Assembly (NCBI RefSeq): GCF_003991155.1
Contig: NZ_CP031293.1
Strand: one strand, 5' to 3'
DNA: 64,000 bases
Origin: Escherichia coli
GTDB lineage: Bacteria > Pseudomonadota > Gammaproteobacteria > Enterobacterales > Enterobacteriaceae
The translations under genes were made by a program, and so were the position numbers. The notes below the pieces were generated by a model. The model did not search any database. It saw nothing but the letters and a program-made list of their open reading frames with translations, and was not told the DNA's origin. This document shows, piece after piece, positions 9,024 through 64,000 of this stretch (position 1 is the stretch's first letter; every line of letters begins with the position of its first letter).

Positions 9024-9067
9024 AGGGCGAAATCTGCCGCCTCTACCATTACAATACGGAGTTCATC

Positions 9068-9244
9068 GTGGTCAAAGCACCAACTAAAAAAGCCAAAGCA
9101 AAGAAAAGCTCTGAAGAAACATTATGTGATACCACAAACCAATTTCGTGGTAGCGTTGAGTCCTCCGAATACAAGCACGTGGTGTTAAGCCTCGTGCTCC
9201 AGAAACTCATCAGCGATAAGTTTGAAGCACGCCGCAAAAAATGA
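9068..9244 (+). pseudogene. Truncated 5' fragment of a type I R-M methyltransferase gene (hsdM N-terminal domain only)
   Basis: Reading frame VVKAPTKKAKAKKSSEETLCDTTNQFRGSVESSEYKHVVLSLVLQKLISDKFEARRKK-stop; the SEYKHVV...ISD motif is the hallmark of HsdM N-terminal domains; frame ends after 58 codons. Confidence 0.55.
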
Positions 9245-46684: not shown

Positions 46685-48418
46685 ATGGAAATCATATTAC
46701 CAAAAAACACCTTATATGACAGAGAGCAAAATGTCTTTTTTGAAAAGGTTACGGCCTTAATTGGCGAAAATGGTGCTGGTAAGTCCTCGATTTTACAATC
46801 CGTATTTATTAACTGTTTAACAAAAAAATATCTACCAGAAACAAAGGTTGTTTGTTTTTCTTCTGGACAAAATGAGAAATACTCAACGTACTTCTCTGAT
46901 TATCTTTCTCATGAAAGGCAAGCAAATAGAGGTCTTAACTTAGATTGTTGTTATTACGATAAATCATGGTCAAAGTTACTAATATTCATATCCACAATTT
47001 GTAAATCAAATGGTCTTGTTAGAAATTTTTTATGTGAGAAAGGCTATATTGATGTATCAGATGATAAAAATGATGATATATCAAGCAAGCTTACATTGAC
47101 GGTCCGAGTAAATTCGGCTTACGTTAATCGAGTAAAAATGGCATTAGCACAAGAAGAACAAGGTATTGAAAATACTTTAAGGTATTCAGCTTATCATAGG
47201 ACTTTAGAAAGTTTCATTAATAATATTGTTAATGCTGATTATGATTTCGAGTCTCCACTTGAAGCTCAAGAGATCTTGCTAACTCATTCAAATTTTTTCA
47301 ATCCATCATTTGAGGAAGCAGAAGATTCCTTTTTTGATCCTATCATAACATTTTTCACTCAAGCAGCAGATAATGATTACTTTATAATAAAACCATCATT
47401 ACAGCTAGAGTTTAAAAATAATATCGAACTGAATGATATTAGTGATGGGGAATATCAAGTACTCTTTTTATACTCTCTGCTTGATATTTTTGATAGTCCT
47501 AATACTTTATTCTTATTAGATGAGATAGATTCCCATTTACATTACAAGAATATTGAGCTCTTATGGCATCGACTACATAGTATTAATGGTTATGCGATAA
47601 CAACCACCCATCTATTAGACTCAATTACAGCTACTGATAATGATTTTAAAAACTTAAAGATTGTTGATAAAGGAAAAATAAAAGAAGATGATAAAATAAA
47701 AACTATAATAGAACGTTTATCTGTCTTGACAAGAATATCAGACGTACAGTTCGAAGTGTGTCGTAAACTAGAAAACATAGTATTGATGGATGATTATAAT
47801 GATTGGACTATTTTTTATGCCTTAGCAAAGAAAAAAGGACTTGATGTATCAAAGTTAGATGGCCTCCATGCAATAAAACAGTCCTCTGGTTACGATAATT
47901 TAAATCAAGAGTTCGCAAAACCAAAAATAGAGTGGATTAATTCGCTTTTAAATGTAAATACTGATAAAAAAGTCAAAAGAATATTCATGATCTGCGACAA
48001 AGATGAGGCTCCAATTACCTATCAGAAAGATGGAGTTCAAGTCAATGGAAGTGAATATTCAAAACATATAGCGAAGTTAGAAAATAAAAACAAAAATAAA
48101 ATATATCTCCTTGCATGGAAAAGAAGAGAAATAAAAAACTACTTACTATCTTATACGGCATTGTCCCATCATGGATTTATCGAGCAAATAAACAATGGAG
48201 ATCTGCCAGCTAACAGTTATTTAAAAGAAAACGATCCTGGAGATAATTCAGCAATTAGCCGGCTTAACGTAAAACATTGCATCACAAAAATAATTGATTC
48301 TGATGGTATAGGATTAGATATATCAAAACTTTACTCATATATAGAACTTATACCACCTGCTGAGATCAGTGAAGATATAGTGAACATGTACAATTTTTTG
48401 GTGGAGAAATTAAAATGA
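46685..48418 (+). CDS. OLD/PARIS-like ABC-type ATPase (AAA_15/21-like) with C-terminal Toprim-like (RloB/DUF4435-like) domain
   Basis: 577 aa; Walker A LIGENGAGKSSIL, Walker B/D-loop LFLLDEIDSHLH, C-terminal DxD-type motif IFMICDKDE; very AT-rich coding sequence; stop overlaps the next gene's start (ATGA). Confidence 0.6.
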   Translation: MEIILPKNTLYDREQNVFFEKVTALIGENGAGKSSILQSVFINCLTKKYLPETKVVCFSSGQNEKYSTYFSDYLSHERQANRGLNLDCCYYDKSWSKLLIFISTICKSNGLVRNFLCEKGYIDVSDDKNDDISSKLTLTVRVNSAYVNRVKMALAQEEQGIENTLRYSAYHRTLESFINNIVNADYDFESPLEAQEILLTHSNFFNPSFEEAEDSFFDPIITFFTQAADNDYFIIKPSLQLEFKNNIELNDISDGEYQVLFLYSLLDIFDSPNTLFLLDEIDSHLHYKNIELLWHRLHSINGYAITTTHLLDSITATDNDFKNLKIVDKGKIKEDDKIKTIIERLSVLTRISDVQFEVCRKLENIVLMDDYNDWTIFYALAKKKGLDVSKLDGLHAIKQSSGYDNLNQEFAKPKIEWINSLLNVNTDKKVKRIFMICDKDEAPITYQKDGVQVNGSEYSKHIAKLENKNKNKIYLLAWKRREIKNYLLSYTALSHHGFIEQINNGDLPANSYLKENDPGDNSAISRLNVKHCITKIIDSDGIGLDISKLYSYIELIPPAEISEDIVNMYNFLVEKLK

Positions 48419-50322
48419 ACACCTCTTTATTTGAAGATCTACTTACACTAATCAAGAAAAAGAGTTCGATAAGGAATACAGAACAAGCAGTAGAGTTAAT
48501 TTCATTATTTATTTTTTTACATTATATAAAATTATATCTTTATGAAAATGATAAAAGATTTTCAGATATAAAAAACATATCAAGCAACAACATTAATGAA
48601 ATTAAATATTATTATCAGCAACTATATGAAAGTTTTATTTTCTCGATAGATATAAAAAATATAAACCACGACATGCTTGAAAAGCTCAGGAGTAAGATAG
48701 GTTTTTTAATTAATAACATCAATGACCATGAAATAATTAAATATATAGATTATTCTATTTCGCAGATACATTCACTTACAGAATTCTATCAATATGCAAA
48801 TTCTTATCAATCTTTAATTCTTAGGATGGTTAATGAATCGGGTCGTTCAGGTGAATATGTTACTCCATCTGCTTTAGTTCAGCTCATGGTTGAAATGTTA
48901 TCACCTACAGATGGCACATCAATCTACGACCCCGCATGTGGAACTGGGGGTTTATTAATAGAGTCAGCACGATATATTAAAGGCAACAGTTTAAACAAAA
49001 ACTTAAATTTAAATTATTCCCTTATTGGTAATGACACATCATCATTTGCCTGTCTAATCTCAATTGTTAACCTTTTAATCAATAAAGAATTTAATTTTGA
49101 AATAATACTAAAAGATAGCTTAGATATAAATTATAAGAATACAAAATATGACTTTATTTTAACTAACCCACCATTTGGGAAAAAGAGCGGTTGGGATAAT
49201 ATTCATATTGACACACATTATAAAGGACCTAATCTAGACTATTACTTCCTGGAGCATGTTATTGACTCTCTCGCTGTTAATGGCAAAGCAGCCATAATAT
49301 TACCAGAGCGTTTTTTATATGATGTGAGTAAAGAGTGCATCACTCTTAAAGATAAGATCTTCCAAAATTATAATTTAGATTGTATTTTATCTATACCGTC
49401 AGGTGCATTGCTTCCTTACACTGCAGTAAAATTATGTATTCTTTTTATAAGTAATCCTGGCCCAACAGATAGAATATTTTTCTACAATTTAAATAATGGT
49501 GAAAAATACTCACGTACAAATATTATAAAATTCGATGATTTTATAGATTTTTTAGAGTCAGCAAAAAATAGAACAATAACTGAACACTCCTGGATTATCA
49601 ATATTAGTGATACACCTTCATCTTATAACTTACTCTTAAAAGATAAAGAGCGAAACTCATATGAGTTTCTTAGTGATTCTATAGTTAACATTGAACAGAC
49701 AATACGTAATAATGAATTATTACTAACAGAGTTGTCTTTATTAAGAGAAAAAATAGCAATCTTAGAGTCAACAATAAAAAATCATTCGCATGAATATGAA
49801 TTTGAGAGACTTAAAGTTGGAAATATTGCAATAGTAAAATCCGGAAATTTATTACAAAAAAACAGGCTGTTACCCACTGGACCAATTCCTGTATACGGTG
49901 GAAATGGAGTTATTGGATATAACAATGAGGCAATGGTAAATGGTGAAAATATTATTATTGGTAAGGTCGGAGCTCTTTGCGGAAACGTTCGGTATGTTCA
50001 AGGTGATATTTGGGTGACAAATAACTCATTAATTATTAAGAATTATTTACCAAATAAAGTTTTAACACCCTACCTTGCAAAGTTATTATCTACTTTAAAC
50101 TTAAGAAAGCTCGCCGTTGGTACCGCTCAACAATATTTAACCACAACACAAATAAAAAATGTAGAAATTAGCATTCCACCTTTAACGACCCAGCATAAAT
50201 TAAATATGTGGCTTGATGAGTTAGATAATACCCTTGAACAATATAATAAGCTCATTGAAAAAATAATGAATGATAAGCGAGAACTTAAAGAGAATTTGTA
50301 TAAAGGTCTTTTAATAGAATAG
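48415..50322 (+). CDS. HsdM-like N6-adenine DNA methyltransferase fused to one HsdS-type target-recognition domain (M-S fusion)
   Basis: 635 aa; motif X EYVTP, motif I DPACGTGG, motif IV TNPPFG; C-terminal ~180 aa resemble a single TRD plus HsdS conserved helix (KVGNIAIVKSGN ... VTNNSLIIKN ... TTQHKLNMWLDELD); AT-rich; translationally coupled to the upstream gene. Confidence 0.7.
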   Translation: MNTSLFEDLLTLIKKKSSIRNTEQAVELISLFIFLHYIKLYLYENDKRFSDIKNISSNNINEIKYYYQQLYESFIFSIDIKNINHDMLEKLRSKIGFLINNINDHEIIKYIDYSISQIHSLTEFYQYANSYQSLILRMVNESGRSGEYVTPSALVQLMVEMLSPTDGTSIYDPACGTGGLLIESARYIKGNSLNKNLNLNYSLIGNDTSSFACLISIVNLLINKEFNFEIILKDSLDINYKNTKYDFILTNPPFGKKSGWDNIHIDTHYKGPNLDYYFLEHVIDSLAVNGKAAIILPERFLYDVSKECITLKDKIFQNYNLDCILSIPSGALLPYTAVKLCILFISNPGPTDRIFFYNLNNGEKYSRTNIIKFDDFIDFLESAKNRTITEHSWIINISDTPSSYNLLLKDKERNSYEFLSDSIVNIEQTIRNNELLLTELSLLREKIAILESTIKNHSHEYEFERLKVGNIAIVKSGNLLQKNRLLPTGPIPVYGGNGVIGYNNEAMVNGENIIIGKVGALCGNVRYVQGDIWVTNNSLIIKNYLPNKVLTPYLAKLLSTLNLRKLAVGTAQQYLTTTQIKNVEISIPPLTTQHKLNMWLDELDNTLEQYNKLIEKIMNDKRELKENLYKGLLIE

Positions 50323-50402: not shown

Positions 50403-53400
50403 TTAATAATGCTCCTCAATATACCCATACGCCTTCTGGAACAACTCTTTATCTTTCCCTAGTCCAAACTGGGCCAAGGTCAGTAAAAGCGCCTTTTGGA
50501 TTTCGCGCGGGCCACTGTTGGAATTTTGCCAGCCATCAAAGCGGGTAGCTTTCACAATTTTATCAATTTGCTCTACAACATCACCGATTAACTTAGGGGT
50601 AGTTTCCGGACGTGTTTCGAGGAAAAGCTTAGTCAACGCCTGTTTATTATCAGCTTCAGTTACTGGGCGCTCGCCCGTTTCGCGCTCGGCTTGAACGGTA
50701 TCTTTCGCTGCATCCAACAGGCCTTTCAACCAGTCAATGGCCTTGATAACACCAGCTTCATAGTCCTGACGCAGTTTTTCAAGGCGCTCGCCCAATGCCA
50801 CAAATTTAGGATCATGACTGCCGCGCAAACGTCCCATAAGATCAATCTCCAGGCGTTTGGCACGTTGTTCCTGCTCTTTAGCGGTCAGGGTAAAAATAGC
50901 GTGCTCGTCCATAACCAACTCGTCAATATCATCGCGAATACGATTGATATCAGTATGCTCATGGATCATCTTGATTGTTTCGGGGCCAAGGGCAGCCCAA
51001 ACAAGCGCACCTGTCTGCCCTACCGGACGCACCGATTCATAAATTTGCGCCAGCCATTTATAGTCCTGACGATAAGAGGTCAAAAAAGGATCTGGGTTGA
51101 TAGCTGACCATAACTTGGATAACACACCAAAGCTGGCAGCGAATTCATCGCGTTTCTCGTTGGTCGGCAGGCATTCCTGCGCGGCCATAATACCTTCAAA
51201 ACCAGCTATGGACCGATCCACACCAGGGAAGAAGGACAAACATTTATTCAGTTGTAACGGCAATAGCTCTTTAAATGCCTCAATTCCCTCTACAACTCCT
51301 TCAATTTCTTCAGGGTTATAGGCCAGAGCGGTACGCAGATTTTCGAAAACGCCGAGGTAGTCGATAATTAATCCCATGTCCTTGCGTACAGTATCGGTTT
51401 CGTACAACCGGTTGGTTCGGCACATGGCCTGAAGAAGAGTATGATCGCGTAGAGGCTTATCGAGGTACATGCAGTAGCAAATCGGGGCATCAAAACCCGT
51501 AAGCAGCTTGGCGGTTACGATAATAAGCTGTAATGGATGTTCAGGATCTTTAAAGCATTCAATCAGATCCTTTTGCACCTGTTCTTCGGCATCAATGTGC
51601 TGCCAGCGTTCAAAATCGACTTGTTTGACTGGCAGCTCCAACTCATCATGCCATTTAAGCCAATCCTTGTTGAGCTTGTCTTTTTTGCCACCCTCTTCAA
51701 CTTTAACCGGAGCCTGGTCAACGTTCATAACCACTTCAACCGCATCAAAACCAAGCTTTTCACCGAGCAAATAATACATCTGCACACAGGCTTCGCGATC
51801 GTATACCACAACCATGCCTTTCATCTTTTTCGGCATAACATGGTTGGTAAAATGCTCAGCAATATCATTACTCACCGCAGCCATACGCCTAGGGGATTTC
51901 AGCATGATTGCCAGCTTGCCTGCACGCCTGGACAATGCTGCTTTTTCTTCTTCATCCAGGTTGTTTTCGGTAGCCAGTTGCTCGAACTCTTCATTGATGG
52001 CATCACGATCCACTCGGAGTTCAGCCAGCCGAGGTTCGAACTTCACCGGGTTAGTTGCGCCATCCCGGATCGACTGCTTATAGCTATAGCGGCTCATATA
52101 GCGACCTGGATCTTCTTCGGCACCGAACAATTTGAACGTATTACGATCAATGCCAGAAATCGGAGTACCAGTCAGGCCATAGAAGTGGGCATTGGGCAAC
52201 GCCCAGCGCATTTTCTCGCCTAATCCCCCTTCCTGTGTACGGTGAGCTTCGTCAACCAACACAATGATATTGTCCCGGTTGTTCAGGCCATTAGGGTTGC
52301 TATCGTCAATTTCGATATCTTTAAATTTAAAGATGGTGGTGATTAAAATGCCACGGCTGTCTTGTTCTATGTATTCACCCAACTTTTTGCAGCTTTGCAC
52401 TTTAATCAGATTCTTAACGTCGGCTCCGCCAAAGGTCTCGTTAATTTGGCTGTCCAGATCTCGCCGGTCCACAACGATAAGTACCGTCGGGTTTTTTAAC
52501 GCATTATCGGCACGTAGCATTTTGGCGGCGTAAAGCATCAACAAGGATTTACCCGATCCCTGGAAATGCCAAATAAGACCTTTTTTTGGATAGCCTCTGC
52601 GAACACGCTCAACAATTTGTTTTGCAGCTTCAAATTGCGGATAACGCGGCAGGATTTTAACGCGTTTAGGTGGAGTATTTTTGCCCGTTTTGACGGTTGA
52701 AAATAATGCAAAAGATTCAAGTAACTGCAATAAGGTTTGTGGATTTAACAAACTCTCACAGCTGTTGAGTACCGATGCTAATCCCGGCAGAATTTCATCA
52801 CGAAGCTCAGTATTATGCCAGGGCCCCCAGTCTTTAACTCTGGCATTAATGGCACCATAGGCAAAGGTTTTTCCTTCGCTGGCAAAGCACAGCAAGTTAG
52901 GTACAAAGAAAGATTCAACATTTTTCCAGTAGTACTTTTTGCCACCCATGAAATCGGCAGCACCGTCTTGCCAGGTCACGCTGGGGCGTGTTGCGGTTTT
53001 AACTTCGCCCACTACTAGCGGTATGCCGTTCACATAAAGAACAATATCAAAATAGACTTCAGTGGCCGCGATATAGCGAACCTGCTGCGCCACCACAAAG
53101 TGGTTGTTCTCTATATTGTCAAAATCAATCAGATTGATGGTGATATGGTCGCCATTCTTACCAAAAGGCAAGGTTTTGTCGGCCATCAACCATTCCTGGA
53201 AGTTTTCATTGGCCTTTACCAAGCCGGTATGGCGGGCTTCTAAAACCACTCCTCGCAGTTTGTAAATGACCTCATCGGCATAGTCAGGCTGTCTGCCGAT
53301 ATCAGGGTTTAACGAACAAAGCGCGTCTTTTAGCCACTCATCAACGAAGATATCCTGCGCTTGTTTAGGCAGGTTTTCACCGTGGCAGTAAGTCCACTTG

Positions 53401-53465
53401 ACTCCGCTTAAACCTTTTAAACGGTCGATAATTCCATTTTCTGTGACGGTTTGTTCGTTAAACAA
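50403..53465 (-). CDS. hsdR: Type I restriction enzyme R subunit
   Basis: 1020 aa; SF2 helicase motifs (GSGKSLLMLYAA Walker A, VLVDEAHRTQ DEAH box); last gene of a tightly packed four-gene operon. Confidence 0.9.
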   Translation of the reverse strand: MFNEQTVTENGIIDRLKGLSGVKWTYCHGENLPKQAQDIFVDEWLKDALCSLNPDIGRQPDYADEVIYKLRGVVLEARHTGLVKANENFQEWLMADKTLPFGKNGDHITINLIDFDNIENNHFVVAQQVRYIAATEVYFDIVLYVNGIPLVVGEVKTATRPSVTWQDGAADFMGGKKYYWKNVESFFVPNLLCFASEGKTFAYGAINARVKDWGPWHNTELRDEILPGLASVLNSCESLLNPQTLLQLLESFALFSTVKTGKNTPPKRVKILPRYPQFEAAKQIVERVRRGYPKKGLIWHFQGSGKSLLMLYAAKMLRADNALKNPTVLIVVDRRDLDSQINETFGGADVKNLIKVQSCKKLGEYIEQDSRGILITTIFKFKDIEIDDSNPNGLNNRDNIIVLVDEAHRTQEGGLGEKMRWALPNAHFYGLTGTPISGIDRNTFKLFGAEEDPGRYMSRYSYKQSIRDGATNPVKFEPRLAELRVDRDAINEEFEQLATENNLDEEEKAALSRRAGKLAIMLKSPRRMAAVSNDIAEHFTNHVMPKKMKGMVVVYDREACVQMYYLLGEKLGFDAVEVVMNVDQAPVKVEEGGKKDKLNKDWLKWHDELELPVKQVDFERWQHIDAEEQVQKDLIECFKDPEHPLQLIIVTAKLLTGFDAPICYCMYLDKPLRDHTLLQAMCRTNRLYETDTVRKDMGLIIDYLGVFENLRTALAYNPEEIEGVVEGIEAFKELLPLQLNKCLSFFPGVDRSIAGFEGIMAAQECLPTNEKRDEFAASFGVLSKLWSAINPDPFLTSYRQDYKWLAQIYESVRPVGQTGALVWAALGPETIKMIHEHTDINRIRDDIDELVMDEHAIFTLTAKEQEQRAKRLEIDLMGRLRGSHDPKFVALGERLEKLRQDYEAGVIKAIDWLKGLLDAAKDTVQAERETGERPVTEADNKQALTKLFLETRPETTPKLIGDVVEQIDKIVKATRFDGWQNSNSGPREIQKALLLTLAQFGLGKDKELFQKAYGYIEEHY

Positions 53466-53466
53466 T

Positions 53467-54633
53467 TTATTGTCCCCTCAGAAGAATATTCAAATAACTG
53501 GACTTGAGTTTACGAATTTTTTGAAGCCTTGATTTAGCTTCTCTATAACTGTTTTCGGCTAAATGTAATATATCCTTATATTTCCCAAGCTCTCTTGATG
53601 GTGGTATAACCATCTTCTGAGAATGTACATCGGCATCATTAACAGCCGGGAAACTTGTACCAACTGCCAAATTGGTTAATGAATAAGTGAATTGCTTCGA
53701 CAAAGTGAAATAATAAATAAAATCGGACAAATCATTTTTTGCCCTTAGAACAGTAAAACCTGTTGATGCTATTGAATCATTCAATATTTCAGACACATAA
53801 AACGTAGCTCTATGATTGGGTCTAACAGTGCTAACAACAATATCTTTTTCCTTAAGAATACGCCGAGCTCGGCTGGGGGCTTCAGCGAAATGGTATTCTT
53901 TAGGAGTATCGACAAAACCAGGAAAAGTCACTGAAGATATATCTATATACCTAATCAGCTTATTTTTATTGGCATCATTACTTAACAAGTCAAAATTAAT
54001 ATTTGATACATCCTTCAATCTAACTTTGTTATATCCAAATGGCAGTTTTTCTTTTCGATCAAATGTAGTCAACCGATCAATTAATCTTTGAAATAAATTT
54101 AATGCAGACCTTTCAGTCTCATTTGCACAATGTAATACTTGTTCGATTTTTTTTAAAGAATTTAAAAAATCAACTTGCAGATCCATTTCAGGAATAATAA
54201 ATTCCTGCTGACTTAAAACTTTCCATTTTATCGTTGGAGACAATGACCCCTCCGAAATTGCTACTGCACGATTCATGAAAGTATCAGACTGCATAATAAA
54301 GGGTAAAAACTCAGGTATTACAGTATTTGAATTTGCCTCCAGAACCATGGCATGAGCCGAACAGATACAATCCCAATCTGCTACCGCGACTTTACGTTGA
54401 TAAGCACGACGCTTACCAAAAATAATCTGGCCTTTTTTCACTAAAAGCTTCTGCCCTTCAACGTCACTGGGTGTACCATGACGTTTGATTTTCAGGCTGT
54501 CAGGGTCTAAATGCTCCAAACCGACATAAATTTCAAGGTCTGTCTCGCTCGGTTCCACTCGTTTAGAGATATGTTTAGCGATATCGCCAAACTTCACCAT
54601 TTGCCAGCCTTCAGGTAATTGCTGTTCTGTCAT
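53467..54633 (-). CDS. hsdS: Type I R-M specificity subunit (two TRDs)
   Basis: 388 aa with two TRD-like halves separated by a conserved central region; AT-rich; abuts hsdM2 and hsdR. Confidence 0.85.
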   Translation of the reverse strand: MTEQQLPEGWQMVKFGDIAKHISKRVEPSETDLEIYVGLEHLDPDSLKIKRHGTPSDVEGQKLLVKKGQIIFGKRRAYQRKVAVADWDCICSAHAMVLEANSNTVIPEFLPFIMQSDTFMNRAVAISEGSLSPTIKWKVLSQQEFIIPEMDLQVDFLNSLKKIEQVLHCANETERSALNLFQRLIDRLTTFDRKEKLPFGYNKVRLKDVSNINFDLLSNDANKNKLIRYIDISSVTFPGFVDTPKEYHFAEAPSRARRILKEKDIVVSTVRPNHRATFYVSEILNDSIASTGFTVLRAKNDLSDFIYYFTLSKQFTYSLTNLAVGTSFPAVNDADVHSQKMVIPPSRELGKYKDILHLAENSYREAKSRLQKIRKLKSSYLNILLRGQ

Positions 54634-56133
54634 TTACTGCTCCACCTTGCTTTCAACGTTATATCCAAGCTCTGCAAGGCTCTGGAATAATTTATTAGTT
54701 TGCTTTTTCAACTGAGTACGGCTTACTTTCCACGCTTCAATCGCATGTTCAATATTATGTACTTCAGCGTTGTTTTGTGCTTGCACATACAGTGGAATTG
54801 AAAGGTTATAAAGGTTTTCTTTAATAGCTTCAATATTCACTAAAGAGGTTATATCGTTTTTTTTCTCCGGATTAAAATAAGCCTCGCATAATACCTCCAA
54901 ATCCTCATCGGATAAGCGACTATGAGCGCGTTCACGGGTAACATGCTCAACCCCGTTGATAAATAACACTTTATTTTTGCGTTCGGCAGGTTTATTGCAA
55001 TTAAGCACCACCACACAAGATTCCATCGGCGAGTTATAAAACAGATTTGGTCCCAAACCAATCACCGCTTCAATAATGTCCGATTCAATCACCTGTTTAC
55101 GAATGGCCTGCTCAGAATCACGGAACAGCACACCGTGTGGCCAGAGCATAGCAGCACGACCGGTATCGGGTTTTAAACTTTTAATTATATGGGTATAAAA
55201 AGCATAATCAGCGCAGCCCTGCGGTGGGACACCATAAAGATTTCGACCATACGGATCAGCAGCAAACTTGTCACGATTCCATTTTTTAATGGAGTACGGT
55301 GGGTTGGCAAAAATCACATCAAACTGCTTGAGCCGATCGTTTTCAATAAACTTTGGCTCAGCCAAAGTATCACCACGCAGCACATCAAACTCTTCAATAT
55401 CGTGCAGGAACATATTCATACGGGCGATTGCGGATGTCAGCAGGTTCACTTCCTGACCATAAAGGTGCACAGAGCGCCACTCTTCCCCTCTAGCACGCAG
55501 ATCCATCACTGCATTTAGCAACATCCCACCTGTGCCACACGTTGGATCATAGGCGGTTTCACCCGGTTTTAAGCCCATAATGCGCGTCATTAAATGCACG
55601 ACTGTTCGGTTGGTGTAGAACTCTGCTGCCGTATGACCGGAATCATCAGCGAACTTTTTAATCAGGTATTCGTAGGCCTCACCAAGATCATCCTGAGCGA
55701 CAGATTTAATGCCTAGCGGAATTTGACTGAAATGTTCAATCAGATCAGCCAGCAGATGATCGGGCAGGCGCTCTTTATTGGTCCACTGCGCATCACCGAA
55801 GACGCCATGTAAACGCGGATTATTGGCTTCAATTAGTCGAAGCGCATTCTGGATCGCTTCACCAATGTTTTTACTGGTATTGCGTACCTTTTCCCAACTG
55901 GCTTCAGAGGGAATGTTGAAACGGTGAAACATCGGCATGGCGGCATATTCAGCATCACCTTCATGGAGTTCCAGCGCTTCGTTATATTCTTCCAGATAGA
56001 CATCTGACAGGCGTTTGTAAAACAGCAACGGGAAGATATACTGCTTGTAGTCTGATGCGTCAATTTGGCCACGAAGAAATTCGGCGGCTCCCCAGAGCAG
56101 CTCTTCCAGCTTTTTATTACTCATAGTACTCAT
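54634..56133 (-). CDS. hsdM: Type I R-M methyltransferase subunit, paralogue 2 (motif X variant FYTNR)
   Basis: 499 aa; HsdM_N (DASDYKQYIFPLLFYKRLSDVY), DPTCGTGG, ANPPYS; start overlaps the stop of the upstream hsdM paralogue (ATGA). Confidence 0.85.
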   Translation of the reverse strand: MSTMSNKKLEELLWGAAEFLRGQIDASDYKQYIFPLLFYKRLSDVYLEEYNEALELHEGDAEYAAMPMFHRFNIPSEASWEKVRNTSKNIGEAIQNALRLIEANNPRLHGVFGDAQWTNKERLPDHLLADLIEHFSQIPLGIKSVAQDDLGEAYEYLIKKFADDSGHTAAEFYTNRTVVHLMTRIMGLKPGETAYDPTCGTGGMLLNAVMDLRARGEEWRSVHLYGQEVNLLTSAIARMNMFLHDIEEFDVLRGDTLAEPKFIENDRLKQFDVIFANPPYSIKKWNRDKFAADPYGRNLYGVPPQGCADYAFYTHIIKSLKPDTGRAAMLWPHGVLFRDSEQAIRKQVIESDIIEAVIGLGPNLFYNSPMESCVVVLNCNKPAERKNKVLFINGVEHVTRERAHSRLSDEDLEVLCEAYFNPEKKNDITSLVNIEAIKENLYNLSIPLYVQAQNNAEVHNIEHAIEAWKVSRTQLKKQTNKLFQSLAELGYNVESKVEQ

Positions 56134-57629
56134 ACCTCGAAACCTTCTTTGATAAGCAGGGCCTCCAGCTCCTCTTCTGCTTTTTCCAGCTCAGCCAGCT
56201 TCCGTTGAAAATCTTTGAGCGCCTCTTCCACAGTGATGGTTTCTTCTTCGAGTGGCTTTTGCACATAACGAGCAATATTTAGATTGAAGTCATTTTCTTC
56301 AATCTCCTTCAGAGAAACCCAGCGTGCAACGCCTTCGATTTCTTTTGCATCTGGCCCTTGTTGCGCCTGGTCATGATAGATTTGGTATATTTCATCGGCC
56401 TGCTTGTTGGACAGCGTATTCTGCGCACGTCCCTTGGTATAGATTTCTTCAGCATTGATGATCAATACATGATCTTTATGCGCGGCCGGACGTGATTTAC
56501 GCAGCACCAAAATACACGCAGGAATCCCAGTCCCATAGAACAGGTTGGAAGCAACACCAATAATCGCCACAATGCGATTCTCTTGCAGTAATTTGGTTCG
56601 AATTGCCCCCTCTGCGCCGCCACGAAACAGCACACCATGAGGTAATACGACTGCCATACGTCCATTGTCGTTAAGTGAAGCAAACATATGCTGCACCCAG
56701 GCAAAATCACCATTTGTTTTAGGCGCCAGGCCATATTGCTTACGGCCATAGGGATCGTTCGACCACAGATCGTATCCCCATTCTTTTAAGCTAAATGGTG
56801 GGTTGGCAACAACGCAGTCAAAGGTTTCTAAACGATCGCTTTTTAAAAATTTAGGTTCGCGTAAAGTATCCCCTCGGACAATATCGAAATCTTCCTGTCC
56901 ATGCAGGAACAGATTCATACGCGCAATAGCTTCCGTCGTTAAGTTCTTTTCCTGACCCTTGATTTTTAGTAAACGCGGATCACCACCATTTTCTTTTACA
57001 TGGTGGATGGTCTCAAGCAGCATACCACCGGTACCACAGGCGGGATCGTAGACACTCTCACCGGCTTTTGGATCAAGAATGTTAACCATCAAACGAACGA
57101 TAGTTCGTGGGGTATAGAACTCACCGGCTTTCTTATTGGCTTTGTCTGCAAAGCGTTTGATCAGATACTCGTATGCGCGCCCCATATCATCGTCACGGAC
57201 ACTAGAAACGCCAAGGTTCACCTTATTGAAGTGATTGAGTAACGTAGCCAGTAACTCATCAGAAAGGCGTTCTTTATTGGTCCAGCTGGCATCGCCAAAA
57301 ATGCCATGCAGTTTAGGGTTTGCCAGTTCTATACCACGGAAGGACTCTTTTAAAGCCTGACCGATGTCCTTGGTCTCAGCGAAAACATCGCGCCAGTGGC
57401 AATTTTCAGGTATCTGAATACGGTGAAACATCTTGCCCTTGGCAAGCTCTGCATCCCCAATGCTCTCCATCGCATCGGCAAATTCTTCGTCATACACGTC
57501 ACAAATGCGCTTGAAGAACAGGATGGGGAAAATGTACGTTTTGTAATCTGACGCATCAATGGGCCCTGTAATAATATGGGCTGCATGCCATAGATGGGCC
57601 TCGAGATCTTTTAGGTTAATCAGTGTCAT
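56130..57629 (-). CDS. hsdM: Type I R-M methyltransferase subunit, paralogue 1
   Basis: 499 aa from ATG 57629 (MTLINLKDLEAHLW...); DASDYKTYIFPILFFKRICDVY, GEFYTPR, DPACGTGG, ANPPFS; ORF track extends to 57731. Confidence 0.85.
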   Translation of the reverse strand: MTLINLKDLEAHLWHAAHIITGPIDASDYKTYIFPILFFKRICDVYDEEFADAMESIGDAELAKGKMFHRIQIPENCHWRDVFAETKDIGQALKESFRGIELANPKLHGIFGDASWTNKERLSDELLATLLNHFNKVNLGVSSVRDDDMGRAYEYLIKRFADKANKKAGEFYTPRTIVRLMVNILDPKAGESVYDPACGTGGMLLETIHHVKENGGDPRLLKIKGQEKNLTTEAIARMNLFLHGQEDFDIVRGDTLREPKFLKSDRLETFDCVVANPPFSLKEWGYDLWSNDPYGRKQYGLAPKTNGDFAWVQHMFASLNDNGRMAVVLPHGVLFRGGAEGAIRTKLLQENRIVAIIGVASNLFYGTGIPACILVLRKSRPAAHKDHVLIINAEEIYTKGRAQNTLSNKQADEIYQIYHDQAQQGPDAKEIEGVARWVSLKEIEENDFNLNIARYVQKPLEEETITVEEALKDFQRKLAELEKAEEELEALLIKEGFEV

Positions 57630-57872
57630 TGTTGTCTCTTTTCGATCCTGCAGTGCTTGAACTCTCAGCAACTCATGGATTTCACAGTAAAAAAGCAAGT
57701 AAAGCGATTCCACAACCACCTGAGCGTTCAATATGTATGACGCCTTTACCCAAGTTGCTTAAATCAAGGAAATTGCCAGAGATAATACTCTGGCATCAGA
57801 ATGATACCAAGTTGAAGGGCTGATTTCCGCATCAATACCTTGTGGTAATAGGGGATTACTCTTTTACCCTTA

Positions 57873-58910
57873 TTGGCGCAAAATGGCGGCATTTCCTCAT
57901 TTCTCCATCGGAGCATCTTACGCGCTATAACCACTCTCGTTTTTTCCTATTCCCATGCAGATGAAGCACTACGCAATGAACTTGAGAAGCATCTCTCCCC
58001 GCTGAAGCGAACCGGGAAGATCACAACATGGCACGATCGCCGCATCGTTCCTGGTCAGGAGTTCGAACGTCAGATCGACCACTATTTTTCGCAAGCAGAT
58101 ATCATCCTGATCCTGATCAGCAGTGACTTTATTGCTTCTGATTACTGCTATCAGGTAGAGATGAAAAACGCACTGGAACGGCATAACCGGGGCGAGGCAG
58201 TGGTCATTCCGGTAATTTTAAGAGACTGTGCATGGCATCAGTTAGAATTCGGCAGCATTATGGCGGCGACTATCGACGGTAAACCCATCACTAAGTTTGC
58301 CACCCACGATGAAGGCTACGTTCAGGTCGTCGAGGCTGTCTCGCGTGCCATTGCCCGGATGGAAGCCAAAAAACCACAGCAAACCATACATATCCCTTCA
58401 CCGGCTCCGGCGAATCCGATCTTTCAGGGAGTAGATTCCGTTTTTACACCGCGTTCAAGCAACCTTACTCTACCCAAGAAATTTACCGATCTGGATAAAG
58501 ATCGTGCCAGACGTGAGGGCTTTGAATATGTTGCCCGCTATTTTGAAAATTCGTTAGATGAACTCAAAAAGCGCCACCCCGGATTAGATATCGATTTTAA
58601 TCGGCTTGATACAGATTCATTCACCTGTGCCGTGTATATCAATGGCAGTAAGGTCGGCCAATGTGGCATCTGGCGAGGCAATCAACATCATGGAATGGGA
58701 GATATCTGTTATAGCCAGGATAATGTTGTTCGAAACAGTATTAACGAAACTCTAAGCCTTGCTGATAACGGCCAGACTCTTGGTTTTCGTGCTCTGATGG
58801 GAGGCTTCAGTCGAGGAACTTCACGAGACGAACTATTGACCAATGAAGGTATGTCGGAACATCTCTGGGAAATGTTCTTCGGGCTAATCAAGCAAAGAAT
58901 GTCCCGATAA
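57873..58910 (+). CDS. TIR-domain protein with uncharacterised C-terminal domain
   Basis: 345 aa; N-terminal ~150 aa show bacterial TIR pattern (VFSYSHADEALRNELEKHL ... ADIILILISSDFIASDYCYQVEMKNALERH); remaining ~190 aa not recognised. Confidence 0.65.
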   Translation: MAQNGGISSFLHRSILRAITTLVFSYSHADEALRNELEKHLSPLKRTGKITTWHDRRIVPGQEFERQIDHYFSQADIILILISSDFIASDYCYQVEMKNALERHNRGEAVVIPVILRDCAWHQLEFGSIMAATIDGKPITKFATHDEGYVQVVEAVSRAIARMEAKKPQQTIHIPSPAPANPIFQGVDSVFTPRSSNLTLPKKFTDLDKDRARREGFEYVARYFENSLDELKKRHPGLDIDFNRLDTDSFTCAVYINGSKVGQCGIWRGNQHHGMGDICYSQDNVVRNSINETLSLADNGQTLGFRALMGGFSRGTSRDELLTNEGMSEHLWEMFFGLIKQRMSR

Positions 58911-59094
58911 TTTGCCATATCACAGTCGGGCATACTGCCCGATTTTTGTGCTGTCATTATTGGCAATATCTCAATAGGCGTTGAGAAATGGTGCAATTTA
59001 ATCTTGCCAGAGCGCTGTTACTTGGGGACGAAATTAATGGGCTCCTGCTGTAGTTACAGCAACGCCTGTAAATACAAAAATAGGCGTTGCAAAT

Positions 59095-60150
59095 TCATGC
59101 TGGCAAATACGTTTTCTTAAGCGGCACCAATAGCTTAGTCTCTATATCCACTTGCTCATAGTTTTCAACTAACGCGCGTACCAAATCATCCAGCGTCCAT
59201 AGCGTCAACGGGATTGTAGAACGATCGGCCTCATAACGCGCATCCTTGCTGAATCCGCCGGTACTGACATACAGCCCGCGATCGTCTTTATGGCGGCCAC
59301 CGATAAAGCTACGGATTTGCTGGCTGCTCATCTGTTCCCGCCGGTGCTTCACCTCAACAATAATGCGCGGATTTTCAAACCCAAATCCGTCAGGCGAAGC
59401 AATGATGTCTTTCCCACGGTCAGCACCCGCAGGCGATACCTGAGTTTTATATCCCATGCTGCGTAACACGCCAGCGACCAGATTCTGCATCTCATCCCAG
59501 TCGAGACGGTTGATACGATCCTTGATGCCTTCAAAAGCGATCATTTCCATGTCGCGCAGAGGATTAGAAACGACCTCATCCTCTTCACCTGAAACAGGTA
59601 CTTCCGGCACGATATCTGAGACAGGCTTATTGCCCTGCACTAATTCATTCACAGCAAAATCAGGCACCTGAAAAACTGTCAGCGTTGAACCAAGGGTGTT
59701 TCTAGTTGCATCACTCAGACTATCGCGCTTAATCTCTTCCGCATTCCACTTCACTTTACGGGCGATGCCCATGCCATCTTCAAGCCACTCGGCATGAAAC
59801 TCAAAATCTGACGCTATTTTCCCTATTAAATAGGTCCGATTAGAAGGTGAATAAGTGATAGCCCAGTCGCCTTTCTGCATTTCATTCACAAAGCGCCAGA
59901 CCTGAGAAGCTCCAGAACGAACTGTGCCTGGCTTAGTCTGTGGCTCAAGCTCCTGATACCGGGTAAACAACTGCTCTCTTGAGCATCCAGGTTTCACATA
60001 GGGAGCGAGCTGCGACCAACCAATTGCAACAACCTGTTTGTCTCTGAAGTCGTCGTACAATTTTCCGCCATCACCGCGGATCATCCACATCTTAGTCGCC
60101 ACAATAATTCCTTCTGAAAATACTTCATCGTTATACCGGGACGTGATCAT
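59095..60150 (-). CDS. Putative modification-dependent restriction endonuclease: PUA/EVE-like N-terminal domain fused to Mrr-type catalytic domain
   Basis: C-terminus has the Mrr core (GADRGKDIIAS ... IIVEVKHRRE ... YVSTGGFS); N-terminus has EVE-like pattern (VWRFVNEMQKGDWAITYS ... YLIGKIA); ATG 60150 has SD AAGGTGG (ORF track starts at 60183). Confidence 0.6.
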   Translation of the reverse strand: MITSRYNDEVFSEGIIVATKMWMIRGDGGKLYDDFRDKQVVAIGWSQLAPYVKPGCSREQLFTRYQELEPQTKPGTVRSGASQVWRFVNEMQKGDWAITYSPSNRTYLIGKIASDFEFHAEWLEDGMGIARKVKWNAEEIKRDSLSDATRNTLGSTLTVFQVPDFAVNELVQGNKPVSDIVPEVPVSGEEDEVVSNPLRDMEMIAFEGIKDRINRLDWDEMQNLVAGVLRSMGYKTQVSPAGADRGKDIIASPDGFGFENPRIIVEVKHRREQMSSQQIRSFIGGRHKDDRGLYVSTGGFSKDARYEADRSTIPLTLWTLDDLVRALVENYEQVDIETKLLVPLKKTYLPA

Positions 60151-60212
60151 TCCATTCAGCCACCTTATCCAGGGGAAAAACACCGATAAGATGGCTAATC
60201 AAAATGTCTGTT

Positions 60213-63200
60213 CTAAACCTGACGCCTATCAAGACTATTATAAATAGCCTCAATCTCACCTTTCAGGTTATCACCAGAGTAAACCATCGATGTATCGTAT
60301 CGTTCATATCGCGCTTCCCGTGTCGCACTAAACCAGTTGAACGATCCCACGCATAGCAAACCATCATCACCAATAACAATTTTGCTATGAACACGGTTTA
60401 CCAGCTTTGTAGCAATACCCAGCGCATTCAGTTTCTCCAGCGCCGCTTTAAGGTTCTGCTGCTTCTCTTTTCGCTTCTCAAAATCTTTATGTTCAGTGTT
60501 GTAGCTTCTGTCAGTGACTATCGTGACGTTAATACCACGTGAACACGCCGCAATCATGGAATCAAGAAAACCCGTTTGCTCCAGCTTTTGCCAGGTCAGC
60601 CATGGAGAAACTATCGTGATGTGTTTATCGGTATTTTCAAACGTCTGATTCAGGAAGTTATCATGCTGCTCCACACCATGAAGTGTGTAGATTTTGGTCT
60701 CGGAAGTTTTTAAATCCTTACGCTCTTTATAATCAAAAGAGAGCGCATTCTTCTCGAACTCAAAGAGATATTTTGCCAGCAATCCTCGCGGAGATGAGGG
60801 AGCCTGGATCTCAAACAGATCCATATCGCCGAAGACCAGGAAGCTATCCTTCGCACGGGAGACTGCAACATTCAGCATGCTGTTATCGCTATCAATAAAC
60901 CCGCCGTCTTCATGTTTTGAATAGACTGGCGAGAATATAACAATCGCTCTTTCCGCTCCCTGAAGAGAGTGCACGGTGCCCACTGTGAGCGACTTTTCAT
61001 TCGCGCCCGTACTGATACCTTGTTTACCCAGCGCCTGTTTTATAGTGGATACCTGCGCGCTAAAAGGCGTCACGATACCGACAACTTCATGAAGCGATTT
61101 GCCGTAATGCGCTTCAATATTTTGCTGGTTCTCTGCCAACCAGGCCGCTATCGTTTCAGCCTCAAGCAAATTATATCTACTTCCACTACTTGCCTGCTCT
61201 CCTTTACCATCAATATGGAGATAACCCATTGCGGGCATTAAATTGCTCTCTTCACGCCCTCTTTTAGGCAACAACTTACCGTGATAGCAGAGCGTATTAC
61301 AGTATCCAATAATATTATCGAAGCACCGGCGGTGTTCATATAGGTACATACCACGAGCCAGTTCGGGATCATATTGATAGCGCGAAGCAAACTGCGCTAT
61401 TTTCATAACGCTGCCAGATGCGGCACTTTTACCAAGGTCTGCGATTGCCGTATATTTCTCGGTAATCTCTTCTTGCGTACTGCCAGACAGAATTTTTTCC
61501 GCCAGCATGTTACCGACATCAATCGCGGGAGCAATACTCCATATTGGCGGGATCTGCTCCGTATCGCCAATCACTAATGCCTTCTTAGCTAATGCAAACG
61601 AGGCAGCAGCCACTTCAGGAAGCACCTGCCCGGCTTCATCGACAATGAGTAAATCGGCAAAATCATACAAATAACTTTTCTCGAATTTACGTTGTCCTTT
61701 GTGCTCACTTATCTGCATATTGCCGGGCAGCATATAGCATGTCATCACCACACATGGAGTGAGTTTCATTCGACGTTGCCAACGGGCGGTTACCCCTTTA
61801 GCGCCTTGTTTCTTCTTCTCTTCCTGCAGATCATCAATTCTGGCCATATCCATCAGCCAACGACCTTCCCAGTAGTGAGTCGTCAGTAAAAATGCAGGGA
61901 AGCGAATCTGCGTATCAGCCAGTTCATCGGCCTGTGAGAAGCTCAGTTCCTCGTCGCCCTCATACCCTAAATCAAATGCCAGCCTCTGCCACTCCTGAAC
62001 CGCCTGCTGTTCTTTAAGAACGATTTCATGGGCGGAGTCAATCTGCTGCCGGTATGTTGTTTGCTCGCGCTCAGCGGAATTGAGCAGCCCATCAATATTA
62101 CGTTCGATAGTTTCAGGATCAGACCACTGATTTCCTGCAATCAGCGCGCCTAATTTATCTTCGAGAAACAGCTGTATTTGGTACTGTCGCTTATTGCGAA
62201 CCGCCGGGAGCCAGGAAAATAATGAATAGATCAGTGATTCACCGGCGCGATATTTTTTCCATTCCGTTTTAGCACTCTTCAGTAGAGTGACTTTTTGTTC
62301 TTGTCCGGAAAGTAATTTATTTAAATTATCGAGATATTGCTCAATATCATTAGCAATAAGCTCACGCGCAGCCCGAATCTGGCTTAACATTTGCCATGTT
62401 GCGTTCAGTCTTATCAGTTGCTCGGATTTTGCTGCCAACTGACCATGCAGGAGTTCAATGATCTTTTCAGGGGATGAACACTCTTTTTCAGGAAAGGCTG
62501 CCTTAGCCTTCTCCAGATAAAACAGCAGTGCATCCTCTACATACTCTTTTGACTCAACCTGGGTGAAGAAATCTTCAGTTTGATATTTTTTGGCTGCCTC
62601 AGCTTTACGAGTGCTTGAGGGAAAATAAGCGCCGAAGCTTTTCAGCTCTGGCAACCATCGTCCGGCCATCGCACCTGAACCTTGCGAAAAGTCTTTCCCG
62701 AATGCCTCAATAATGTTCGTTACAGCCTGGTTATTCGTTGAAGTCGCGATAATAACCGGAGGCTCAGATTTTTCGAGAGCTGCTCTGGCCCACTGCGTGG
62801 CGATGATAGAAAGCACCAGCGTGGTTTTTCCGGTTCCCGGAGGTCCATTAACAGCAAGGATATCGCCATGTCTTGCATCCAGAAAATGGCTTAAGGCATC
62901 GCGCTGAGCCTTTGCCAGCGGAAACTTATCTCCGGAGTGTCCAAGCCTGTCGCTGAATTTTGCTCCTGGGGCCAGCAAAGACTCTGCAGCATGAACCTCT
63001 CGCGAGGCGAAGCGATTGAAGAGCGGCACATCCTTCTTGCAAACAAGCAGGTGATCATAAAGAGAAAGGATATGGAAACTGGCACCGCCAGATTGCGCCG
63101 TTTTAACAATATAACCGTGCTCAGCGAGTACATATTGCTCAGGATTTTTAATCCAGTCGCCGGCAACATTCTTCAGCAGCCTCTCTGAATCATCCAGATA

Positions 63201-63728
63201 TTGACGCCACTCCTGCTGCAAGGCTGCATATCGTGCTTCCCGTTCTTCATCCGTTTCGGCAGTCTTATCAATGCTGTCATCAAAGTTGATAGAGAACGAG
63301 GTATGGATTGTCTTGTATTTGTCATACTGCCCAATATCACCAATCGAAAATGCTCCTTTTGGCAAAGGTTCAAGCAGGTCTCTGGGAATGGAGGTCGCTG
63401 GCGTCGGATATAAAAAACCCTCACGGCTTAGCAAGGCTGGCGTCACTAGCGGGGTAACAATATCAGGTGCGCCTGCGGAACGGTCCTTACCATGCTGCAG
63501 TAACCGAAAATAAACTTTTGGGCGCAAGACGACATCGACCGTTTCGACATCGTCTTTTTCTCCCTCAAAAAATTTACTGACAATCGCTTCGTCAAGACGT
63601 CCCGCCGCTATCCCATGCCAGTGAGTGAAATTTTTGGCGTCTTTCCGTTCAAAACTGCCCTTTCCTGACTCAGCATCTGCAAGCGAGTTGCGCCAGTATG
63701 AGGCAAACCCTAAAGCATTTTCATCCAT
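60213..63728 (-). CDS. SF1 (Upf1/Dna2-like) helicase fused to C-terminal PLD-family nuclease; type II Mokosh-like
   Basis: 1171 aa; Walker [14 protein letters not shown], Walker [11 protein letters not shown], helicase C-terminal motifs ([17 protein letters not shown]), PLD HxK(x)4D motif [21 protein letters not shown]. Confidence 0.7.
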
Positions 63729-64000
63729 TACCAGTCCTATGACTCAATGAAATCCATTGATTTATCGAATATAAAATCACCGTATGGATAACTATTGTCC
63801 ACGTTGAAAGGCTGGCTGCAATGTTTTGTTCACGCTTCGATACAAATACTCAGGTTATACGGAGTTCAGAAAACGACCATATCATGTTGCATGGCACATA
63901 AAAGCTTTATAACCGAAGCAGCAAAGGATTACCGGCTGCGCAGCACGCCCCGAAAGCCCGTGAGCCCTGCTGGACAGCGTTCAGTGCAATATTGGAGCCT

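Follow-up and report, generated by a model that had tools for sequence, protein, structure and literature searches.

Organization of the locus

The window, a 64,000-nucleotide stretch of Escherichia coli DNA, covers the leuX–fim defence island. Two neighbouring open reading frames picked out from the sequence were confirmed on the minus strand, one at 60213..63728 (1171 aa) and one with a maximal extent of 59095..60183. Pfam matches bore out the domain calls made for them, with AAA_11, AAA_12 and PLDc_2 on the first protein and Mrr_cat on the second. The features discussed below are as follows.

60213..63728, minus strand: mkoC, type II Mokosh by sequence, a one-gene system whose 1171-aa product is an SF1 helicase-PLD defence protein (ORF, PADLOC, Pfam, SG150 match)
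60822..62915, minus strand: Upf1-like SF1 helicase core of MkoC, residues ~272-969 (Pfam, motifs)
60300..60647, minus strand: PLD nuclease domain at the MkoC C-terminus, residues ~1028-1143, carrying one HKD motif (Pfam, motifs)
60148..63880, minus strand: mobile mkoC cassette, comprising the gene with ~150 bp upstream and 65 bp downstream (blastn boundaries)
60145..60208, minus strand: stem-loop right after the mkoC stop codon, within the mkoC cassette (folding)
59095..60102, minus strand: EVE-Mrr gene, predicted type IV modification-dependent restriction endonuclease (Pfam DUF8426 and Mrr_cat; PADLOC PDC-S02)
59653..60102, minus strand: predicted N-terminal EVE/YTH-like (PUA-superfamily) reader domain, corresponding to Pfam DUF8426 (PF28530)
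59173..59514, minus strand: Mrr_cat PD-(D/E)XK nuclease domain (Pfam PF04471)
57927..58910, plus strand: divergent TIR-domain gene (ThsB-like) flanked by the Mrr gene on one side and the type I R-M operon on the other, given for context only (PADLOC, Pfam, RefSeq)
50403..57731, minus strand: type I R-M operon hsdM, hsdM, hsdS, hsdR, co-directional with the Mrr gene (ORFs, RefSeq)

The helicase-PLD gene as type II Mokosh

The larger gene encodes a single 1171-aa polypeptide in which the helicase (AAA_11 and AAA_12, residues 272-969) lies N-terminal to the PLD domain (PLDc_2, residues 1028-1143). The helicase is of the Upf1-like type (COG1112) and its ATP-binding site is intact, with Walker A GPPGTGKT (295), Walker B DEAGQ (~697) and a motif VI-like VAVSRA (954), and the protein gives a partial match to the IGHMBP2-family model TIGR00376. 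The PLD active site HxK(x)4D is present as a single HKD; the motifs quoted for it in the sequence-only reading were located at residues 1114 (HSKIVIGD) and 1128 (GSFN). The PADLOC MkoC profile PDLC03924 is matched along its full length (1684 bits; residues 1-1169 against profile positions 1-1135 of 1136).

Type II Mokosh was defined as a single gene, and mutation of either its ATP site or its PLD site abolishes defence (Millman et al. 2022). The verified representative, SG150, comes from E. coli 5-366-08_S1_C1 (Millman et al. 2022). It differs from the window at 2 positions in 345 nt of upstream sequence and at 1 of the 144 N-terminal residues displayed for it. The assignment to type II Mokosh thus held on profile, motifs and near-identity, and on sequence the 1171-aa protein is an allele of the published MkoC. 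The 3903-bp SG150 insert ends at about window position 60152, 61 nt past the mkoC stop, and excludes the Mrr gene; the clone lacking that gene still defended (Millman et al.). Published assays of a near-identical allele thus report phage resistance from mkoC as a single gene, with no Mrr gene on the clone, and by analogy this would extend to the present copy.

The EVE-Mrr protein as a predicted type IV enzyme

The second gene was correctly identified as an EVE-Mrr gene. Its Mrr_cat domain (PF04471) scores 83 bits against a cut-off of 21, and the nuclease motifs D (GADRGKDI) and E-V-K (IIVEVKH) are invariant across 31 homologues. Several Trp and Tyr residues (W23, W63, W74, Y78 and W113 in RefSeq numbering) are invariant as well. 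PADLOC assigns the protein to PDC-S02 through PDLC04819 (275.6 bits; residues 30-362 against profile positions 3-330 of 334), and NCBIfam holds no model for it. At the sequence level, neither Pfam models applied to the first 182 aa at E<=10 nor a profile search against PDB sequences gave a useful EVE match. The full-length AlphaFold2 model was moderate (pLDDT 76, pTM 0.45) because of a flexible linker, and the N-terminal domain was therefore modelled again on its own. It is this structure prediction alone that resolves an EVE-like fold. Foldseek placed MspJI and AspBHI at the top of the matches to the full-length model.

The protein is thus predicted to combine a reader domain of the PUA superfamily (EVE, YTH, SRA or ASCH) with a catalytically competent nuclease domain. 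The protein is neither fused to a methyltransferase nor regularly accompanied by one, yet type I hsdM adjoins its gene at 23 of 80 loci and the window itself has a type I operon close by. Fusions of PUA-superfamily domains to nucleases are experimentally established as modification-dependent enzymes (PMC6765204). By analogy, the EVE-Mrr protein is predicted to be a modification-dependent restriction enzyme of type IV.

EVE and YTH domains are also classically, and often, RNA binders (PMC6765204); we therefore infer, rather than observe, a DNA target. In a different role, the second gene would not encode a defence nuclease at all, its product joining an EVE/YTH-like domain that reads modified RNA to an Mrr-like part that is inactive or regulatory. 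A weak Pfam match to NA-iREase1 ('inactive restriction endonuclease'; 24 bits, below its cut-off) agrees with this, as does a preprint in which one PDC-S02 representative is not among the systems protecting against T7, T5 or T4. Such a role nonetheless appears improbable, given the invariant catalytic D...E-x-K, the strength of the Mrr_cat match, the nearest two-domain structures, which are active modification-dependent DNA endonucleases, and the consistent placement of the gene in defence or R-M contexts.

The junction between the two genes

Homologues of the Mrr protein are 335 aa long and begin 'M..KMWMIRGDGG', and gene callers give 335 or 329 aa. The best start is for these reasons GTG 60102, which is preceded by GAAGGA 6 nt upstream, leaves a gap of 110 nt and yields 335 aa. 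RefSeq places the start at ATG 60084 (59095..60084, 329 aa), with a gap of 128 nt. An intergenic distance of only ~60 bp, with a dedicated Shine-Dalgarno sequence, had been proposed from ATG 60150, and this part of the earlier description fell. The homologues and the gene callers rule against that codon, and the AAGGTGG taken for its Shine-Dalgarno sequence is the 3' arm of a hairpin belonging to the mkoC cassette.

The hairpin follows the mkoC stop codon and has a stem of ~14 bp. It was rejected as a canonical intrinsic terminator, since it lacks a U-tract and the z-score over the whole 131 nt is only -1.39. The mkoC transcript may end at this stem-loop. A terminator scan of the mkoC-Mrr gap found none, and mkoC and the Mrr gene may accordingly share one transcript.

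This geometry (same strand, 110-128 nt apart, no predicted terminator between) is one of the arguments for a functional pair, in which the EVE-Mrr nuclease and MkoC would form a two-gene system. The nuclease might, for example, deal with modified (T-even-like) phage DNA and MkoC with the remaining phages; activation of one protein by the other is a second form that the pair might take. The defence conferred by the verified clone without the Mrr gene counts against it, and its remaining support comes from the distribution of the two genes.

Distribution of mkoC

Among 5426 complete E. coli genomes searched, 839 carry mkoC, and only 134 of about 859 mkoC-bearing genomes carry an intact mkoC-Mrr junction; a further 725 match the junction probe only from 60148 onward. 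The Mrr gene is consequently missing beside ~84% of E. coli mkoC copies. Homology to the Mrr-less loci L002-L005 covers window 60148..63874/63882 (blastn), and the stretch from 60148 to ~63880 is the sole part common to the Mrr-less mkoC loci of pheV/pheU/leuX pathogenicity islands. Since this homology stops at 60148, mkoC behaves as a one-gene cassette, with its boundary falling between mkoC and the Mrr gene. The Mrr-less E. coli copies follow island integrases and are succeeded by unrelated genes.

The same holds further afield. No Mrr gene adjoins mkoC in Enterobacter hormaechei (94% identical) or beside an 89%-identical homologue, and homologues at 46-52% identity stand alone among housekeeping genes wherever their flanks are readable. 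These distant homologues came from a search of a representative library, as a word-indexed protein search returned almost only near-identical E. coli entries. Contig P0250, with another distant homologue, is too short to show neighbours and lies outside this comparison. A scan of viral contigs gave one MkoC locus, on a contig that ends 340 bp past the gene, so that the downstream genes are not visible. Together, these data show how the verified Mokosh II clone is set in natural genomes, in a one-gene cassette bounded by 60148 and about 63880.

Viewed from the Mrr allele, linkage in E. coli is tight. mkoC lies directly upstream of every sampled copy of this allele, and the tallies by genome are consistent with this, at 134 junctions and 119-137 Mrr matches. 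The two genes are also neighbours in Citrobacter freundii and, much diverged (67-74% nucleotide identity), in GCA_009765475.1; the arrangement has therefore persisted for some time. HNH-(hypothetical)-mkoC-Mrr is preserved as a block, with variable DNA on either side. The constant order, the conserved block and the diverged instance would all suit a functional pair.

Against a pair, an internal deletion in GCA_009765475.1 (L090) destroys mkoC and leaves the Mrr coding sequence intact, and conversely several E. coli genomes retain mkoC next to an Mrr gene interrupted by IS621. A 531-aa protein (P0005; AAA_11, DUF8426 and Mrr_cat) had the appearance of a natural helicase-Mrr fusion; it is a deletion joining an MkoC fragment (residues ~222-415) to the Mrr gene.

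Adjacency of the two homologues in other genomes had been put forward as a check on pairing, and mostly they are not adjacent. They do not co-occur as neighbours across diverse genomes in the manner of a two-gene MkoC and EVE-Mrr system, and pairing is confined to one E. coli/Citrobacter lineage. Outside it, all other readable homologues lack the Mrr gene, with L090 offering only a deleted mkoC remnant. Unrelated neighbours of the helicase-PLD gene in most genomes, one of the two outcomes named in advance as refuting a pair, are what ~84% of the E. coli copies and the other homologues with readable flanks display. With an SF1 helicase-PLD neighbour also absent from 79 of 80 species-level Mrr loci, a functional pair is very unlikely.

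Usual neighbours of the Mrr family

The species-level loci reveal a different association. An MkoC-like gene lies within 8 kb in one of the 80, and that locus, in Citrobacter sp. NCU1, belongs to the same lineage. Type I genes occur within 6 kb at 29-31 loci; at 23 loci hsdM lies directly beside the Mrr gene in the same orientation, with -49 to +73 bp between the two in ~16 of these. The Mrr proteins have a median pairwise identity of 81%, whereas the adjacent HsdM proteins fall into 8 unrelated clusters with a median of 28%. The association thus recurs with different type I systems. Gene order and strand in the window conform to this pattern, with Mrr followed by hsdM-hsdM-hsdS-hsdR. The usual neighbour of the Mrr family is a type I R-M operon, not Mokosh. 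The intervening TIR gene matches PADLOC ThsB1 (508 bits) and Pfam TIR_2; no ThsA-like gene that would make it a Thoeris pair is annotated among the island neighbours.

The real partner of the Mrr gene could accordingly be the downstream type I operon, in a composite 'immigration control' module where the type I system would act on unmodified DNA and EVE-Mrr on modified DNA. In that arrangement mkoC would be an unrelated upstream cassette and the TIR gene an insertion between Mrr and hsdM. The immigration control region of E. coli K-12 likewise groups mrr with hsdRMS. On the other side, type I neighbours are missing from ~60% of the loci (radC-cbeA-cbtA lies upstream in 10 Enterobacterales loci, for example), and both E. 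coli strain 210205630 and C. freundii have other systems in place of the type I operon. A conserved gene at a recombination hot-spot that exchanges R-M cargo explains the pattern equally well, and adjacency is no proof of biochemical cooperation. Partnership with the type I operon is rather unlikely.

A broader proposal is similarly speculative. The DUF8426(EVE-like)-Mrr family may serve type I R-M operons as a specialised type IV partner. It would share a transcript with hsdM and would have joined at least 8 unrelated type I systems, giving composite modules in which invading DNA is restricted whether unmodified or hyper-modified. In the leuX island it might complement MkoC, additively or synergistically, against T-even-like phages.

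Proposed model and significance

The data are best explained by two independent single-gene anti-phage systems, mkoC and EVE-Mrr, that are chance neighbours in the E. coli leuX defence island and do not need each other. We place the probability of this reading at about 85%. Independence, as is usual in defence islands, had been one of the two options left by the sequence-only reading, and is favoured by the unrelated neighbours of mkoC, the SG150 clone without Mrr and the 79 Mrr loci. The locus is an instance of ordinary defence-island clustering, not a new two-gene system.

Mechanistically, MkoC would couple an Upf1-like SF1 helicase, driven by ATP, to the single-HKD PLD nuclease at its C-terminus. 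The helicase may recognise phage nucleic acid or translocate on it, and the PLD domain would cleave it, probably after dimerising like other single-HKD nucleases. Independently, the EVE/YTH-like reader of the Mrr protein would bind a modified base in incoming DNA, and the PD-(D/E)XK domain would cut nearby. Such an enzyme would have to spare host Dam, Dcm and type I methylation.

The discovery value of the locus is small, as the main gene corresponds to published type II Mokosh and its neighbour is already catalogued (PADLOC PDC-S02, Pfam DUF8426). The habitual linkage of the DUF8426-Mrr family to type I R-M operons, and not to Mokosh, is nevertheless a useful result. Moreover, modelling gives DUF8426 a putative structural assignment as an EVE/YTH-like reader, which makes a widespread family a testable candidate modification-dependent restriction enzyme.

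Comparison with known systems

Relative to SG150, nothing material differs. The gene, its upstream region and the one-polypeptide order of Upf1-like SF1 helicase followed by single-HKD PLD are the same.

The EVE-Mrr protein has a broader set of relatives. It resembles MspJI, AspBHI and VcaM4I in its architecture of reader plus nuclease, although sequence identity to the structures is only 10-17%. MspJI and AspBHI join an SRA domain to a PD-(D/E)XK nuclease, whereas the reader here is predicted to be EVE/YTH-like. VcaM4I and TspA15I carry an EVE-like domain with an HNH nuclease, in contrast to the Mrr_cat PD-(D/E)XK domain found here. The EVE model of Pfam does not recognise the reader, which forms its own family, DUF8426. 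Within PADLOC, the full-length match is to PDC-S02, a bioinformatic candidate defined there as a single-gene system. E. coli K-12 Mrr shares the Mrr_cat catalytic domain and is likewise encoded by a stand-alone gene close to a type I hsd operon, in the immigration control region. Its N-terminus is a winged-helix Mrr_N domain, in place of the EVE-like fold predicted for the protein described here.

Gene identity and domain architecture

Both open reading frames lie on the minus strand at the positions assigned by the sequence-only reading, and its description of their domains was right, since Pfam, motif, and model results agree. The 1171-aa product of mkoC contains AAA_11 and AAA_12 (an Upf1-like SF1 helicase pair) followed by a C-terminal PLDc_2 domain in Pfam. 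Its motifs include GPPGTGKT (295), DEAGQ (~697), VAVSRA (954), HSKIVIGD (1114), and GSFN (1128). The proposed assignment to single-gene type II Mokosh is confirmed by an end-to-end match to the PADLOC MkoC profile (1684 bits) and by comparison with the published system. [quoted passage not shown] According to their supplementary table, the verified type II system SG150 comes from E. coli 5-366-08_S1_C1. The printed start of the SG150 insert overlaps the window end for 345 nt, of which 2 are mismatched, and the 144 N-terminal residues shown differ from the window MkoC at 1 position. The 3903-bp insert comprises 326 nt of upstream sequence, the 3516-nt gene, and 61 nt downstream, and thus ends near window position 60152, ahead of every candidate Mrr start. 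Because the upstream sequence and N-terminus are nearly identical, mkoC in the window is the published type II Mokosh system itself, in the same leuX context, and is already known. The published result and the insert boundary computed here indicate that the SG150 clone defended without the neighboring Mrr gene. A separate preprint regards the product of E. coli K-12 yjhR as a fused Mokosh.

The expected PUA/EVE-like and Mrr-catalytic domains were also recovered in the second protein. Its Mrr_cat match in Pfam scores 83 bits (cut-off 21), and the D of GADRGKDI and the E-V-K of IIVEVKH are invariant in 31 aligned homologs from Enterobacterales, Pseudomonas, Burkholderiales, and Xanthomonadales. 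For the N-terminal domain, searches of local Pfam and of PDB sequences found no match; precomputed annotations assign it to PF28530 (DUF8426). AlphaFold models residues 1-158 with confidence (pLDDT 89, pTM 0.84), and the full-length model aligns best in the PDB, over both domains, with MspJI and AspBHI, which are modification-dependent enzymes. The gene is a catalogued candidate of known kind (PDC-S02), and one PDC-S02 member is not among the systems that a preprint reports to protect against T7, T5, or T4. Homologs are 335 aa long and begin M..KMWMIRGDGG, and the called length is 335 or 329 aa, depending on the gene caller. From these N-termini and lengths, the start is predicted at GTG 60102 (GAAGGA 6 nt upstream) or at the RefSeq ATG 60084. 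The gap to mkoC would then be 110-128 nt instead of ~60 bp, the sole slip in the earlier description.

Genomic setting

The window is E. coli chromosomal DNA from the variable island flanked by tRNA-Leu (leuX) on one side and nan/fim on the other; many complete genomes, CREC-544 among them, match it at 100% identity across 6.2 kb. The island order away from leuX is as follows.

Features of the island, in order from leuX (window coordinates unless stated)
Mostly past the window end: HNH endonuclease and 125-aa hypothetical gene, the latter beginning just beyond 64000; at locus L001, 26255..27480, HNH_2 endonuclease (259 aa) and 125-aa protein, 5' of mkoC in E. coli and Enterobacter
60213..63728, minus: mkoC, 1171 aa
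59095..60102, minus: Mrr-type gene
57927..58910, plus (divergent): TIR-domain gene, PADLOC ThsB1, 508 bits
54634..57731, minus: tandem hsdM pair (533 aa and 499 aa, 4-nt overlap) of a type I R-M operon, preceding single hsdS and hsdR
46685..50322, plus: two-gene module, GC ~30%, AAA ATPase and methyltransferase-type I specificity fusion, 4-nt overlap

Given this gene content, the stretch is a dense defence island. The TIR gene is an orphan Thoeris-like TIR, as no ThsA is annotated near it; certain strains have a truncated or partly deleted copy (651 nt in EcPF15 and DG342-2, 363 nt in A10). PADLOC identifies both tandem HsdM proteins as full-length type I methyltransferases. The low-GC module may be another defence system, and its ATPase shows weak AriA/PtuA/GajA-like matches. 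The 125-aa protein has no family match. Gene calls for Citrobacter freundii include the HNH gene and no 125-aa gene within that interval. Compared with the Mrr gene, this upstream HNH/125-aa block is the more consistent companion of mkoC.

Linkage between mkoC and the Mrr gene

The sequence-only reading had left two possibilities, namely independent neighbors or a functional pair. Among 5426 complete E. coli genomes, mkoC (at least 80% covered) occurs in 839 and the Mrr gene in 119-137. A 701-bp probe spanning the junction matches completely in 134 genomes, and a further 725 match only from window position 60148 onward. In the genomes that lack the Mrr gene, mkoC comes next to the integrase of pheV/pheU/leuX pathogenicity islands as their first cargo gene, and a phosphoethanolamine transferase gene or IS remnants follow it. 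The segment that blastn finds common to the window and these loci spans 60148..63874-63882. With these boundaries, mkoC moves as a one-gene cassette that includes ~150 bp of DNA upstream of the gene and 65 bp downstream; the Mrr gene lies outside it. Among the E. coli genomes H1-H4 and H105-H108, several carry an IS621 insertion at nt 739 of the Mrr gene, and in strain EC0585 mkoC is interrupted by IS100; decay of the two genes is independent.

Beyond E. coli, an ICE-like element of C. freundii (MkoC 95% identical) preserves the order HNH-mkoC-Mrr, and the system downstream is a different one. In E. hormaechei (94%; 3145 sequences in the cluster), the HNH, hypothetical, and mkoC genes stay together and the Mrr gene is missing, as it is beside an 89% homolog. 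Three homologs of 46-52% identity stand alone amid housekeeping genes. In the converse test, a one-genome-per-species scan gave 80 Mrr-family loci (54-98% identity), of which about four to six carry too little upstream DNA to inform. MkoC was found at one (tblastn, E<=1e-5), in Citrobacter sp. NCU1, the window's own lineage. A diverged instance in GCA_009765475.1 (67-74% nucleotide identity to the window) shows that the adjacency predates the E. coli lineage; there, mkoC is dead and the Mrr coding sequence intact. At this locus, a 531-aa protein (8001..9596) consists of a MkoC fragment (residues ~222-415) fused to the Mrr protein. Its AAA_11, DUF8426, and Mrr_cat composition was considered as a natural helicase-nuclease fusion and rejected as an internal-deletion artefact.

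Terminator prediction found no intrinsic terminator between the two genes; a hairpin 3' of the mkoC stop codon has a ~14-bp stem without a U-tract, and the stability of the 131-nt region is unexceptional (z -1.39). The region's best sigma-70-like match, CTGAAA-18-TATAAT (10/12; 60266..60237, minus), lies inside the mkoC 3' end, ~135 nt ahead of the Mrr start, as a candidate promoter internal to mkoC. The Mrr gene could be transcribed from such a promoter or by read-through from mkoC. Co-transcription alone would not make the genes a functional pair, and the pair reading is contradicted by the mostly unrelated neighbors of mkoC. The 134-genome junction, the single MkoC among 80 Mrr loci, and the cassette end at 60148 support independent neighbors.

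Clustering the neighbors of the 80 Mrr loci showed that type I R-M genes are the commonest (hsdM 29, hsdS 27, and hsdR 15 loci). In 23 loci, hsdM adjoins the Mrr gene on the same strand, with the Mrr stop-to-hsdM distance at -49 to +73 bp in ~16. Mrr proteins at hsdM-adjoining loci share a median pairwise identity of 81%, and the adjacent HsdMs form eight unrelated clusters (median 28%). Since similar Mrr proteins thus adjoin dissimilar HsdMs, the DUF8426-Mrr family behaves, as judged from adjacency, as a single-gene module often beside exchangeable type I R-M cargo. Ten Enterobacterales loci instead carry radC-cbeA-cbtA upstream of the Mrr gene, like the ends of CP4-like elements.

Putative modes of action and comparison with known systems

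MkoC defends as a single gene requiring both its ATPase and PLD sites (Millman et al.). Its helicase may sense or translocate on phage nucleic acid, for which the same authors suggest RNA or RNA/DNA intermediates, and its single-HKD PLD domain would cleave after dimerisation. In the Mrr protein, the EVE-like domain would bind a modified base and the Mrr domain would cut DNA, likening it to the PUA-nuclease fusions VcaM4I and TspA15I, which do so on 5mC/5hmC DNA (PMC6765204). As the host is E. coli, such an enzyme would have to tolerate Dam, Dcm, and type I methylation; hyper-modified phage bases could, speculatively, be likelier targets for this reason. The window repeats the Mrr-type I order and strand (50403..60102, minus) with the TIR gene in between. 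This Mrr-type I layout resembles the K-12 immigration control region, which groups mrr with hsdRMS.
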